A stretch of DNA of 35,933 nucleotides from a virus (taxonomy: Duplodnaviria; Heunggongvirae; Uroviricota; Caudoviricetes): the IMG/VR virus record IMGVR_UViG_2684623171_000008; one strand, given 5' to 3'. Positions 1 through 34,894 of this stretch are shown piece by piece. Both the position numbers and the translations under genes were made by a program. Below the pieces are notes generated by a model. The model was not told the origin of the DNA. It worked only from the letters and a program-made list of their open reading frames with translations, and did not search any database. Position 1 is the first letter of the stretch. Each line of letters begins with the position of its first letter.

Positions 1-141
1 TTACTGCTTACACTGTAAGAACGCCGCAAACTCCGCTCCCCAGAAGCTCATCCGTATTTCGCACAGCGAACCGTGCAGCATCCAGATGATGAGGATTGCC
101 GTCACGCAGAACGTGATGGCCGTAAGCGATTTTTGCGACAT
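1..141 (-). CDS. Hok/Gef-family type I toxin-like small membrane protein (46 aa, MSQKSLTAITFCVTAILIIWMLHGSLCEIRMSFWGAEFAAFLQCKQ)
   Basis: Own translation of the minus strand (ATG 141..139, TAA 3..1); ORF too short for the supplied track. N-terminal hydrophobic helix plus SLCEIR and AAF motifs resemble Hok/HokA. Confidence 0.5.
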   Translation of the reverse strand: MSQKSLTAITFCVTAILIIWMLHGSLCEIRMSFWGAEFAAFLQCKQ

Positions 142-271
142 AGCACTTGCTCCTTTTCCGGAGAGGCGCTAACCTTTCACTTGTCAAGGTAATGCGGTTA
201 GGGCCTCGGTTAAACAGAAATGTTTTCCGGGGCCTTTCCACATCTGGCCTTCGGGTATTCCCTCCGACCAT
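8..271 (-). CDS. Possible Mok-like overlapping frame covering the Hok-like ORF
   Basis: Track ORF of 87 aa in an alternative frame that overlaps the whole hok-like ORF, as mok does in hok/sok loci. No independent support. Confidence 0.2.
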   Translation of the reverse strand: MVGGNTRRPDVERPRKTFLFNRGPNRITLTSERLAPLRKRSKCYVAKIAYGHHVLRDGNPHHLDAARFAVRNTDELLGSGVCGVLTV

Positions 272-331
272 CAGCCGAAAGGCACCCGCGCGTAATCTAT
301 CGCTTTTTTGTTACTCCGGCAATTCTGCCTG

Positions 332-592
332 TTAATTCTGAGGTAAAGGCAAACTCATCTGGTTGTTTCCCCTGTGCGAAGCTGGCAGCTCATTCCACGG
401 GATGCCCTCTGAAGAGTGAACGCCGGGAGCGTGTTTCGATGTGAATTTATGGAAAGCCTCCAGTGTTGAGAAGCATACGCCGCATTCCAGATTGTTACAC
501 TGGTAATATTTTTGCCGCACTGTGTTTGAATCATTTTCCGGACGACTGGTGCGGATACGGGCAGATGCGCCACAAAGCGGACAACGGAACAT
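332..592 (-). CDS. ogr: Ogr/Delta-family zinc-finger late-gene transcription activator
   Basis: Begins MFRCPLCG...YYQCNNLECG, the Cys4 pattern of P2 Ogr; AAGGGAGG RBS upstream; lies downstream of D as in P2. Confidence 0.8.
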   Translation of the reverse strand: MFRCPLCGASARIRTSRPENDSNTVRQKYYQCNNLECGVCFSTLEAFHKFTSKHAPGVHSSEGIPWNELPASHRGNNQMSLPLPQN

Positions 593-752
593 AGCGACCT
601 CCCTTAACGTGATGCTGCCGCTATTCTAAGTTGTACTGACTCAGACTCCAACCGTTAGTCCGCTTTGAATGGTAAATGGAATTGTTTTCTCTTCAGAATT
701 AACTATAAAAATGCATTGTATTCAATAAGTTACCATCTAATGATTTGTTATC

Positions 753-24365: not shown

Positions 24366-24493
24366 GATAATTGATCGTTTTAATCGATAGATAATAGACA
24401 ATCTATTTGTTTAACAGATCGATTATTGAAGTAAGTGTGCCAAATGGAATGATACTGTCTCTATAAACGTGAGCATTTTTCGCGCAGATGCTT

Positions 24494-24805
24494 TTACTCA
24501 GGAAATAACGCCCGGATATTCCCAGCCATCTGGCTGGTTATCTTAGCCACTGGTGCAGACTGTGCTTCAAACTTTTTTGAGCTGATTTGTGTCACAGGTA
24601 ACATCTCATCATCAGCCCATGCGGCCAGTCGGTAAGCCTCTGCCGGATTCGTCTTCAGAAGTGCCAGCCCGGCCAGAAAAGCCACGCGTTGGCCGCTTTT
24701 GCGGGCTTCTGGTGTAAGGCTGTCCAGCCAGGCGCATGCTTCTCCTTCGTTCTTGACGGCGGCGGGCTTCAGATAGAAACTTATCCGTCTGGTTGGTGTC
24801 GTCAT
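24494..24805 (-). CDS. ParR/StbB-like partition adaptor protein
   Basis: 103 aa from ATG 24805 (AAGGAG RBS); ISFYLKP...LDSLTPEARKSGQRVAFLAGLAL...LFPE resembles plasmid R1 ParR; directly follows the parM-like gene. Confidence 0.65.
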   Translation of the reverse strand: MTTPTRRISFYLKPAAVKNEGEACAWLDSLTPEARKSGQRVAFLAGLALLKTNPAEAYRLAAWADDEMLPVTQISSKKFEAQSAPVAKITSQMAGNIRALFPE

Positions 24806-24809
24806 TGGT

Positions 24810-25769
24810 TTACTCCTTGTCCATTGCGTACAGCCCATTAACCAGAGCAAACTGTGGCACCCCGTCCGCGATGAAAGTCGCATTAACTCCGCAGGCTTCG
24901 CGGATAGCGGGTGCCACAATCTCCGCCCCGCCACCGACAACCATCACCCGCCCGTAACCCGAAAAAACCGCCAGCGCGCGGATCACGCGTTGTTTCAGTG
25001 TTTCTTCCTTTTCACGAATAACCGCCATCAGGCTGGCGTAATGCGCGTCATTGTGGATGTGCTGGCGCAGCCAGGCTTCATTATGGCGATGTTCGATAAT
25101 GGTATTGGCGATGTGGTGACTGGTGCGCATACCGTTAGTGGCCATCACCGACAGTACGGCATCGGCCATAAGAGAAACGCCTACGTGTGGATCGCAAAAC
25201 ACCTGGCTGATACCTGCCAGTTGCCCCTGAACCTTTGCCACATCCAGCGTGGTTCCGCCCAAATCCACAATCAGCAGGGATTCAAACGGACTCATGTCAG
25301 CCAGTGCTTTAAAGCCAGCCGGAATGGATTCAGGCATAACCCGTACGTTACGGATAGTGAATGCTTCGCCGTTCTGGTACTCCACCGGGCGCATGACGTT
25401 CGCTTTTTTGCGGTTGATGTTGGCCATGTCCGGCTGTGCGTTTGTGTCGAAATATTCGCTCAGTGGCAGGGTAACAACCACATCCACTTCCTGTGGCGTG
25501 ATGTCTGATTTGACCAGCGCGTGATGAATGGCAATGACATTCACATCGCTGTACTGGTATTGCGTGTCGGTCGTCTGGACAAAGCGATCGCTGACCGGAT
25601 CAAAACCATAGCGCACGCCATCAAGCATGTAGTTAGCAGGCTGCGAGCCACCGAACGGCGCAGACCATTCCGACTTGAAGCTGTTCGGGCTGATGGCGTT
25701 GCGGCGTTCGCCGTTCTCAGTCCATGCCAGCTTGATGTTGGTGGAGCCGTCGTCGATGTAAATTTTCAT
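24810..25769 (-). CDS. ParM/StbA-like actin-type segregation ATPase
   Basis: 319 aa; MKIYIDDGSTNIKL, LIVDLGGTTLD and VMVVGGGAEI are actin-fold phosphate and adenosine motifs; extensive resemblance to R1 ParM as recalled from memory. Confidence 0.85.
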   Translation of the reverse strand: MKIYIDDGSTNIKLAWTENGERRNAISPNSFKSEWSAPFGGSQPANYMLDGVRYGFDPVSDRFVQTTDTQYQYSDVNVIAIHHALVKSDITPQEVDVVVTLPLSEYFDTNAQPDMANINRKKANVMRPVEYQNGEAFTIRNVRVMPESIPAGFKALADMSPFESLLIVDLGGTTLDVAKVQGQLAGISQVFCDPHVGVSLMADAVLSVMATNGMRTSHHIANTIIEHRHNEAWLRQHIHNDAHYASLMAVIREKEETLKQRVIRALAVFSGYGRVMVVGGGAEIVAPAIREACGVNATFIADGVPQFALVNGLYAMDKE

Positions 25770-25798
25770 GTCGGTTTTCCTTATGTTGATTAATTAAT

Positions 25799-33721: not shown

Positions 33722-34222
33722 ATGGAAATAAAAAAACCTACAAAAAAAGAGTTATATGACTATTTACTATCGAAATATATAGAAGATAAATGCAAAGAAG
33801 AAGCTGATGAAATCAATAAGAAGTCGATGAGTCGTGTCAAAAAACATAAAGAGCGGCTGATGGAGATTACGCCAGAAATCTTCTTCCGTTTCTTGTCTGA
33901 GAAGGGGGTCTCCAGTGTCTGCCCTTCATGTGGATCGTCGCGATTATCTATTCCTGAAAGTATGGATCTTTGTTGGGATAAAAATAAGAAACCAGAAAAT
34001 TTTAACAATCTACCCTTGGAGGAGCAGAGTGAGTTAATTAAAGAGAACATAAAGCATTATGTATCTTATACTTTTTTTGGTGATGTTAAGAGCATACCTG
34101 ATATGCGCAAAACTTATTACACGCTGCATTGCCTGAATTGTGGTTACCTGAGCCTTTACCGTACGTCTGCGGTGCTGAAGTGGTTGGAGAAAGACAAAGC
34201 GCAGGATGGTGAAAATGGGTAA
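33722..34222 (+). CDS. Hypothetical zinc-ribbon protein (166 aa; CPSCG...CLNCG), AT-rich cargo
   Basis: ATG 2 nt after the int stop; two Cys pairs; no recognisable family. Confidence 0.5.
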   Translation: MEIKKPTKKELYDYLLSKYIEDKCKEEADEINKKSMSRVKKHKERLMEITPEIFFRFLSEKGVSSVCPSCGSSRLSIPESMDLCWDKNKKPENFNNLPLEEQSELIKENIKHYVSYTFFGDVKSIPDMRKTYYTLHCLNCGYLSLYRTSAVLKWLEKDKAQDGENG

Positions 34223-34760
34223 TGCAGCAAGAAACCTTTTCGGTAATTCAGCAGGTAGTATGTCGCATTCTGAGCGTGATGTGCTTTATCATGGCGGCGA
34301 TGGCGGCAGTAGTGGAGGCGGAATGTCAGATAAACTTGAAAGGCGAATTGAGCGACTCGAAGGTGATTTATCGCTAACAAGAAACGACCTTGCGACGCTT
34401 ACTGAACGCACTACAAACCTCTCAACCAAAGCTGATGTTGGTGAGGTGAAAGGTGAGCTCAAAGCAGACATTGCTCATCTGAAAGGTGATCTTAAATGCG
34501 ATATTGCGAATCTAAAAGGTGAGCTTAAATCTGATACAGCTCACCTGAAAGAGCAGCTCAAATCAGACATTAACAGCCTGAAGGGTGAGCTTACCGAAGC
34601 GATGGATAAACGCTTTGACAAGATTATGGATGAGATGAATCGGCGGTTTGACAAGGTTGATGATAATACGAAGTGGCGTTGGAGTGGCATTATTGTGCCA
34701 GTATGCACAACCATTTTCACGGCGGCGGTTGCTGTATTTGTTGCTAAATTTGTTGGCTGA
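34206..34760 (+). CDS. Coiled-coil protein with tandem 11-residue repeats and a C-terminal TM anchor (start uncertain; ATG 34323 has a GGAGG RBS)
   Basis: Repeats DIAHLKGDLKC / DIANLKGELKS / DTAHLKEQLKS / DINSLKGELTE; hydrophobic C-terminus IIVPVCTTIFTAAVAVFVAKFV. Confidence 0.5.
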   Translation: MVKMGNAARNLFGNSAGSMSHSERDVLYHGGDGGSSGGGMSDKLERRIERLEGDLSLTRNDLATLTERTTNLSTKADVGEVKGELKADIAHLKGDLKCDIANLKGELKSDTAHLKEQLKSDINSLKGELTEAMDKRFDKIMDEMNRRFDKVDDNTKWRWSGIIVPVCTTIFTAAVAVFVAKFVG

Positions 34761-34869: not shown

Positions 34870-34894
34870 GGCCGCTCTGCGGCCTTTTTTCTTT
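34870..34894 (+). terminator. Rho-independent terminator
   Basis: GGCCGC-TCT-GCGGCC followed by TTTTTT. Confidence 0.5.

Follow-up and report, generated by a model that had tools for sequence, protein, structure and literature searches.

A predicted hok/sok-type cassette without a conserved mok frame between ogr and the attachment site of a P88-like prophage

The toxin gene and its prophage setting

The window, by which we mean the whole stretch of 35,933 nucleotides that was analysed, extends from the stop codon of a small toxin gene to btuC and covers a P88-like (P2-family) prophage between ihfA and btuC. The toxin gene, hok, is on the minus strand with its start codon ATG at 141-139 and its stop codon TAA at 3-1, and the first base of the window coincides exactly with this stop codon. 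Immediately upstream of the hok cassette lies ogr. The 3'-untranslated region (3' UTR) of hok is found to the left of the window, and its sequence was taken from the locus L001. All features are collected in Table 1.

Table 1. Features of the hok cassette and of its prophage surroundings, in window coordinates (negative numbers lie to the left of the window)
Feature	Position	Strand	Basis
hok, Hok/Gef-family toxin CDS, 46 aa, MSQKSLTAITFCVTAILIIWMLHGSLCEIRMSFWGAEFAAFLQCKQ	1..141	-	complete ORF, Pfam and PHROG
87-aa 'Mok-like' open frame, judged no conserved gene	8..271	-	ORF
hok mRNA leader homologous to Rfam 'sok' RF01794	128..287	-	cmscan
Hairpin occluding the hok translation-initiation region	141..171	-	folding and comparison
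Predicted Sok promoter: -35 TTGCTC (147-152), 17-nt spacer, -10 TAACCT (170-175)	147..175	+	read from sequence
Predicted Sok RNA, ~58 nt	183..240	+	fold
sokT hairpin with GAGG, arms GGCCCCGG...CCGAGGCC	234-202	-	within leader
ucb AAAGGCCCC	237-229	-	within leader
Predicted hok mRNA 5' end (+1 ~287) and tac GGGUGCCUUU	278..287	-	Rfam alignment start, 3'-UTR pairing
Predicted hok promoter: -35 TTGCCG (322-317), 17-nt spacer, -10 TAGATT (299-294)	294..322	-	read from sequence
ogr, P2-type late-gene activator	332-592	-	Pfam Ogr_Delta 52.3 bits (cut-off 26.3), RefSeq annotation
att core copy ggccgctctgcggccttttttcttt, ihfA terminator	34870-34894	+	25-nt exact direct repeat
Hairpin directly after hok stop, GACGGGGGAGCAAUCCCCCGUC	left of window (3' UTR)		
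fbi box AAGGCAUCC, complementary to 5' end	-63 to -55 (L001 5937-5945), 55-63 nt past hok stop		
Intrinsic terminator with U-run	-113 to -86; mRNA end about -90 to -120		
Second att core copy	-287 to -263 (L001 5713-5737)		25-nt exact direct repeat

Judged from its sequence, the minus-strand frame is a genuine Hok-family membrane-toxin gene, the toxicity itself being predicted. Its product matches Pfam PF01848 (HOK_GEF) over profile positions 5-42 of 42 with 29.9 bits (E 4e-7), which exceeds the gathering score of 22, and the same domain is precomputed for most of its database relatives. In PHROG 251, named 'MokW-like host killing', residues 1-46 fall on profile positions 2-49 of 50 with E 1.3e-22, and RefSeq holds an identical protein, WP_000078916.1, under the PGAP name 'Hok/Gef family protein'. 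The alignment to Hok family members that had been proposed from the letters alone was made by BLASTP against R1-type Hok, a query verified by its 100% identity in more than 2600 plasmid records; it gave 12 identities in 31 positions (39%), with SLCEIR identical in both peptides and the AAF motif aligned. Thus the sequence-only reading of a Hok-like 46-aa peptide with SLCEIR and AAF motifs at this place is confirmed by the complete ORF, Pfam and PHROG. The peptide also has the build by which the family is recognized, namely about 50 residues, an N-terminal hydrophobic helix and a core of Cys, LCE(I/V)R and AAF, and among 16 diverse relatives the residues C27, E28, A39, A40, L42 and C44 do not vary. 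In NCBIfam HokA (NF007290, an equivalog) it scores 34 bits against a cut-off of 89, and hence is no orthologue of a named K-12 hok. A PADLOC run on Hok gave no match.

A database search brought 67 relatives hosted by E. coli, Shigella, Salmonella and Klebsiella oxytoca, nearly all of them 46 aa long, and every named one is Hok/Gef. About 60 unique relatives come from P2-like phages, lambdoid phages and plasmids in several genera, and nearly all of them have the 46-codon ORF undamaged; the median dN/dS of the hok frame over 33 unique coding sequences (Nei-Gojobori) is 0.26, which indicates purifying selection. The gene and its family assignment are already known from RefSeq, PHROGs and phage records; in a literature coverage that is incomplete, we found no publication on the 46-aa Hok subfamily.

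As to the origin of the gene, it had been noticed earlier that the hok frame lies just beyond ogr and may therefore be either prophage-terminal cargo or host-flanking sequence. The adjacency holds, with ogr adjoining on the same strand, and the first of the two options is borne out. The 25-nt att repeats, which are spaced 35,157 bp in the lysogen, enclose hok, so that hok is inside the integrated element. The outer copy, located together with the fbi box and the terminator by the look to the left of the window that had been advised, is 263 nt beyond the hok stop, and hok is situated between ogr and att. The insertion point is the ihfA terminator, and the empty site of K-12 has 100 bp from ihfA to btuC, with a single copy of ggccgctctgcggccttttttcttt and without hok. 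What is more, the ogr-hok stretch occurs at 95-97% identity in the genomes of the phages P88, PhiR44_2, Chuche and 500465-2 (genus Xuanwuvirus). That hok might be a chromosomal gene of the host flank merely standing beside the prophage end would agree with its place beyond ogr, the last gene of P2-type prophages, and with the lack of any integrase or phage gene between hok and ihfA; this explanation is already refuted by the att repeats, stands against the hok-free site of K-12 and the four phage records as well, and is left with next to no probability.

The cassette is therefore a mobile module, carried as prophage cargo and not part of the host flank, and its settlement at the ogr-att junction concerns a very common prophage type of E. 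coli. Positions 1-700 of the window are 100% identical in E. coli O157:H7 strains such as FRIK944, the ogr-hok junction is found in 1158 of 5426 complete E. coli genomes when counted by the presence of at least 80% of window 1-700, and the prophage is at ihfA in all four lysogens inspected. Without ogr, the hok cassette (about window 1-310, at 78-88% identity) is found beside lom in Stx2 phages, in phage 1720a-02 and on IncI/K plasmids; ETEC IncF plasmids carry it together with an ogr fragment.

The predicted hok mRNA and Sok RNA

Positions on the hok mRNA are denoted p, for which the window coordinate is 288 - p. The predicted hok promoter comes directly after the ogr stop codon and agrees with 8 of 12 sigma-70 consensus positions, which is under the threshold of the scan, and the predicted +1 sits 6-7 nt downstream of its -10. 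The Stx-phage, plasmid and 1720a-02 copies have TTGnnn and TAnnnT hexamers in equivalent places, and the DNA further upstream is unrelated among them. The leader that follows is homologous to RF01794, for which cmscan aligned the full model (1-157) to 287-128 with 49.4 bits and E 1.2e-9; this is below the gathering score of 59 and places the homologous leader outside the curated family boundary. The Rfam family is named 'sok' yet matches the hok-mRNA strand, ending at an AUG. The order of the leader elements is colinear with that in hokB and hokC, namely GGGUGCC (tac) at the 5' end, ucb, the GAGG hairpin, a variable stretch and the hok ribosome site.

The last of these elements is occluded. 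The hok Shine-Dalgarno (SD) sequence AAGGAG at 155-150 is inside the initiation-region hairpin, in which GGAG is paired to CUCC and a UAGCGC/GUGCUA pairing reaches the A of the AUG. The minimum free energy (MFE) of this hairpin is -13.1 kcal/mol, compared with -13.8 to -16.3 kcal/mol in hokB, hokC and the hokW-type and IncFII/R1-type loci, and the pairs of its outer helix are kept in 61 of 61 relatives, with alternation between G-C and G-U.

From the +1 near 287 to the terminator, the predicted hok mRNA has about 410 nt and folds to -175.8 kcal/mol (z -8.1; none of 100 shuffles as good). In the full-length fold nt 1-15 pair with a box in the 3' UTR, tac GGGUGCC with fbi GGCAUCC, and the control IncFII/R1-type hok mRNA folds with the same end pairing, so that the long-range tac-fbi pairing characteristic of full-length hok mRNAs is present here. 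The fold-back elements whose search had been suggested are present, with tac inside the window and fbi and the terminator just to its left. The comparison set had 61 unique members of about 362 nt with 64-99% identity to the copy in the window, namely viral contigs picked by an exact 15-mer of the leader plus annotated loci. In 59 of these 61 the pairing of the 5' end with the 3' UTR is part of the MFE fold, the two exceptions including E. coli SE11 with an A-to-C change in the fbi box; for the duplex that the first 18 nt form with the 3' UTR the mean energy is -27.8 kcal/mol, as against -17.0 kcal/mol with shuffled 3' UTRs. In the window copy the duplex is weaker (-23.1 kcal/mol, equalled by 7 of 200 shuffles), and its fbi box reads GGCAUCC, with a G-U wobble, where the family consensus is GGCACCC. 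Since the tac and fbi boxes are almost invariant among the 61 relatives and have no double-sided covariation, the pairing is supported by conservation and energy and not by compensatory change. RNAalifold on the same relatives recovered the 5' hairpin, the initiation-region hairpin and the 3' hairpin, of which only the 3' hairpin has clear compensatory changes (A-U to G-C); elsewhere there is almost no double-sided covariation.

Because the sampling 15-mer includes the Sok -10, the conservation of that element in the set holds by construction, and the key checks were for this reason repeated on loci found through the protein, which offsets the bias in part. The protein-based scan of genome contigs gave only 7 loci, 3 of them in implausible hosts. 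All 5 with a readable leader and 3' UTR, among them those of Salmonella, S. diarizonae, E. albertii and Citrobacter braakii, have GGGUGCC, the end pairing and TAACCT; a sixth contig, cut at its 3' side, keeps GGGUGCC and TAACCT and lacks the 3' UTR that the pairing needs. Folding of 3'-truncated mRNAs (1-340 and 1-330) produced no textbook tac-ucb refolding and did not open the hok SD: the 5' end forms a local hairpin with nt 24-35, and the accessibility of the SD and of the Sok target barely changes, hence the activation step is not demonstrated in silico.

On the opposite strand, the search for a sok-like antisense promoter that had been advised for 142-331 found both promoter and RNA features within 147-240. 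The predicted Sok promoter matches just 6 of 12 consensus positions, and its spacing equals that of annotated sokB, which has TTGCCG, 17 nt, TAAGAT, 7 nt and a start at G; here the 7 nt lead to G183. Its hexamers recur in the loci that were sampled through the protein and not by a DNA pattern. A generic sigma-70 scan of the cassette reported no promoter, and the hok and Sok promoters are predictions proposed solely from homology and geometry. The predicted Sok RNA begins with an unpaired 5' tail from 183 to about 200, which is followed by a stem-loop at 201-235 and then by UUUCC. Its folding energy of -26.0 kcal/mol (z -5.2) was equalled by none of 200 shuffles, and the Sok/sokT stem folds in 21 of 21 sequence variants. 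In the 24-27-nt segment between this stem and the Sok -10, which is the target of the Sok 5' tail, there are 22 variants among 61 sequences, and such hypervariability is the pattern expected of a specificity-determining antisense target. A covariation between this target and the 3'-UTR segment to which it is paired in the full-length fold was considered as well and set aside as too weak, with means of -16.6 kcal/mol for cognate and -14.6 kcal/mol for non-cognate pairs and 35% of the non-cognate partners equally good. As far as a cis-encoded antisense gene with its own promoter in the leader is concerned, the sequence features are thus present and conserved with sokB-like geometry, the transcription being predicted.

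The 87-aa frame and the canonical mok

The frame at 8-271, which was described in the sequence-only reading as a Mok-like frame mimicking the hok/mok arrangement, does exist as an ORF; the hok/mok geometry, however, is not reproduced, for the mok ATG is absent. In canonical loci this ATG stands at -56 to -58 from the hok ATG (-57 in hokC, -58 in hokB and -57 in the IncFII/R1-type), 7-8 nt after GAGG in the region of the Sok 5' tail, and the ORF that it opens continues past the hok start; in the same viral collection it is present in 96 of 98 unique hokW-type prophage loci. At the homologous position (GAGG plus 7 nt) the window has CGC, and the relatives have AUA, ACU, CAC or CAU. None of 60 unique relatives has an ATG, GTG or TTG anywhere at -50 to -62.

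Nor is there a consistent substitute elsewhere in the leader. In 37 of the 60 relatives no frame has an ORF leading from a start codon before the hok SD to the hok start, and in the remaining ones the starts are scattered over -130, -103, -100, -76 and -46. P88, which is 95% identical, has a stop in each of the three frames shortly before the initiation-region hairpin, and its 87-aa frame is closed; in many relatives this frame ends early, at +83. Its median dN/dS is 1.8 as against 0.26 in the hok frame, which is weak evidence against mok because the sequence of the Mok peptide is unimportant in R1 too. Two other leader ORFs were tried as candidates. The AUG at mRNA 45-47 opens a uORF of 19-20 codons in the P88 and O157 types and of 1-9 codons in other lineages, and is not conserved; likewise, the Stx type is without the mini-ORF GUG-xxx-GGU-UAG, which is not conserved either.

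It was reported for R1, by a mutational study, that Hok is synthesized only if the mok start codon is present and mok is translated as far as the hok initiation region (PMC9841398). The locus might then still be a canonical hok/mok/sok system, in which the 87-aa frame, or the version of it that starts at UUG 187-185, would serve as mok, be blocked by Sok and open the hok ribosome site. This finds some footing in the O157 lineage, where the frame stays open through the leader and hok until 7 nt short of the hok stop, and in the occlusion of the hok initiation region as in the canonical loci which need mok translation (PMC9841398). The frame has three possible starts, AUG 271-269, GUG 241-239 and UUG 187-185, of which the in-frame UUG (-46) alone falls under the predicted Sok tail (nt 3-5), the right geometry for control. 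But this UUG has no SD sequence, the GAGG being 16 nt upstream of it, and no ATG, GTG or TTG occupies -56 to -58 as the ATG does in hokB, hokC, the IncFII/R1-type and nearly all of the hokW-type loci. The missing or inconsistently starting leader ORFs of the relatives, P88 included, the early end at +83 and, as weak evidence, the dN/dS of 1.8 all speak against it too, and we regard a canonical mok here as quite improbable. What the window offers in place of an overlapping mok ORF that starts in the Sok target is a set of non-homologous starts without SD, and the 87-aa frame is no conserved mok and probably incidental, as judged by comparison of the sequences.

Proposed mechanism and comparison with known systems

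Taken together, window 1-322 with about 120 nt to its left very probably forms a type I toxin-antitoxin cassette of the hok/sok type, carried as cargo of a P88-like prophage and without a conserved mok. By analogy with the R1 and hokW systems, the full-length folded hok mRNA would be a stable and translationally inert reservoir, and slow 3' trimming would strip fbi from it, upon which the 5' end would refold and the mRNA would be activated (PMC9841398, PMC1635323, PMC8621323). The short-lived Sok would keep Hok off by pairing with a stretch of the leader that lies 45-105 nt upstream of the hok AUG, the block proceeding, if R1 is a guide, via cleavage of the duplex by RNase III and/or barred access of the ribosome. 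Once the supply of Sok ends, Hok would be made, insert in the inner membrane, depolarise it and kill or lyse the cell; prophage loss, the shut-off of host transcription by an infecting phage and possibly induction are conceivable occasions for such an end.

Since mok is absent, the canonical route to Hok translation is missing, and the locus could be poorly expressed or silent. Our working interpretation, put forward tentatively and with some doubt, is that the 46-aa subfamily may nevertheless be a functional hok/sok system without mok, in which Sok would exert control without translational coupling, for example through RNase III alone or at a GAGG standby site. Candidate ways for such control are decay by RNase III alone, occlusion of a standby site in the GAGG region and a non-canonical start. 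The subfamily has kept tac and ucb, the GAGG-bearing Sok stem, the fbi box and the occlusion of the hok ribosome site. Its carriers are P88-like phages, Stx phages and IncI/IncF plasmids, and the hosts are E. coli, Shigella, Salmonella, Citrobacter and Klebsiella.

The cassette could instead be a decaying or silent hok relic, inherited with the phage like the inactivated chromosomal hok loci of K-12, which are reported inactive (PMC1635323). A mok start lost while the hok initiation region stays occluded, a weakened fbi in the window copy and the weak fit of the promoters to consensus would all be in keeping with decay. Against a relic stand the 46-codon ORF, undamaged in nearly all of the about 60 unique relatives across several genera, and the median dN/dS of 0.26 in hok. 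In addition, the Sok target diversifies next to conserved tac, fbi and Sok-stem elements, which is the behaviour to be anticipated if the antisense pair is active. We consider the relic unlikely.

As a whole, this is a system of a known kind with its RNA elements on the known hok/sok plan, and the apparently mok-less architecture of the 46-aa subfamily is its only unusual point. The R1 paradigm deems the mok frame essential for the translation of Hok, and the 46-aa subfamily lacks that frame; if active, the cassette would be a natural test of antisense control exerted 45-105 nt upstream of a structured start without a leader peptide. It could serve prophage retention, the exclusion of superinfecting phages or, as shown for the different hokW-sokW locus, the timing of lysis, all of which is speculative for a P2-type prophage.

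Among known systems, hok/sok of plasmid R1/IncF (parB) has in common with the window locus the Hok/Gef peptide with its SLCEIR core, an mRNA of about 400 nt whose 5' end is paired to the 3' UTR, the occluded hok initiation region and an antisense RNA encoded in the leader with a 5' tail and one stem-loop, the last being predicted here. It differs in the length of Hok (52 aa in R1, 46 aa here, at 39% identity), in having a mok ATG at -57, which the window locus is without, and in being plasmid-borne, whereas the cassette of the window is prophage-borne and known here from sequence. With hokB/sokB and hokC/sokC of K-12 it shares the colinear leader, the GGGUGC 5' end, GAAAGGCCCCG, the Sok stem GGCCUCGG...CCGGGGCC and GAGG, and with sokB the spacing of the Sok promoter; these K-12 loci have the mok ATG 7-8 nt after GAGG, and the window locus reads CGC there. 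For control without an intervening leader ORF, tisB/istR-1 offers a parallel: as Darfeuille et al. in 2007 reportedly described, the antitoxin RNA binds far upstream of the structured toxin ribosome site. This is a functional analogy with no sequence relationship, and a standby site in the hok leader of the window is purely what we infer.

The remaining comparison is with hokW-sokW, since the 46-aa protein itself is called 'MokW-like host killing' in PHROG and in RefSeq phage annotation. HokW is a different peptide of 51 aa, HokC-like, whose loci keep the mok ATG in 96 of 98 cases, and in Stx phages the 46-aa cassette sits elsewhere than hokW, beside lom. P2-type phages are not known to be SOS-inducible in the same way as Stx2 prophages. 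Both systems are nevertheless prophage-borne forms of hok/sok; hokW-sokW of the Stx2 prophage Sp5/933W aids lysis and phage release after the induction of Sp5, partly in dependence on RNase III and Hfq (PMC8621323), and this role is a plausible model, by analogy, for the cassette in the window.

Distribution of the hok cassette

The same stretch of about 400 bp that carries the hok cassette in the window (1-322), the gene of the 46-aa Hok/Gef toxin with its predicted Sok antisense, was found in unrelated carriers, as seen by comparison with the loci L006, L007 and L009. The cassette adjoins lom in Stx2 phages and trbA on an IncI-gamma/K1 plasmid, while on ETEC IncF plasmids it is accompanied by an ogr fragment and adjoins a group II intron. 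The homology shared by these copies extends from the -35 element of hok to just past the fbi box, the 3'-UTR element that is predicted to pair with the 5' end of the hok mRNA. The cassette has moved between these carriers.

Hok loci were also met in three genome contigs (L135, L136 and L139), with protein identities of 72-98% to the 46-aa query, and the record titles name a Planococcaceae MAG, Vagococcus sp. and Xanthomonas pisi. Since the leader beside hok in these contigs is the same one from enterobacterial phages, the three records probably represent contamination.

In E. coli SE11 (locus L002, position about 5940), the fbi box reads GGCCCCC instead of GGCACCC, and apart from the SE11 copy just one other member of the family loses the pairing between the 5' and 3' ends in the predicted fold; the SE11 copy may represent a natural fbi mutant.

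Variable slot between gpD and ogr

Between gpD and ogr, the GC content of the window falls to 35-39% (600-1500), vs 50-57% in the surroundings, and the orphan ORF lying in this island (see the table) has no match in Pfam, NCBIfam, PHROG or PADLOC. The corresponding slot in E. coli SE11 is occupied by a different gene, of 384 aa and on the opposite strand. The gpD-ogr slot is a second variable cargo slot of the P88-like prophage type. As for the gpD-like gene itself, RefSeq gives just an 801-nt CDS and a small pseudogene fragment on the other strand, whereas the ORF list shows an open frame through the whole interval, which may be an annotation inconsistency.

Features of the prophage outside the hok cassette
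Feature	Position	Strand	Remark
Orphan ORF, 201 aa	753-1358	minus	within the AT-rich island
gpD-like tail gene	1511-2752	minus	413 codons in the ORF list
ParM-type segregation ATPase and 'plasmid partitioning/stability family protein'	about 24490-25770	minus	RefSeq annotation
166-aa protein gene	33722-34222	plus	between integrase and att core; Cys-x2-Cys pairs; phrog_4293
145-aa DUF1640 protein gene	34323-34760	plus	between integrase and att core

Partitioning genes and the integrase-att interval

According to RefSeq, the ParM-type ATPase and partitioning/stability genes lie inside the prophage and adjoin the replication endonuclease, which is unusual equipment in an integrating P2-like phage. 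At the other locus, the DUF1640 protein shows, on reading its sequence by eye, an apparent coiled-coil and a hydrophobic C-terminus, and its matches in PADLOC are weak only, being to the ZorA, LmuB and LeoBC models (E 2e-5 to 5e-3). P2 has no genes from the integrase to the att core, whereas the prophage of the window carries two small genes there.
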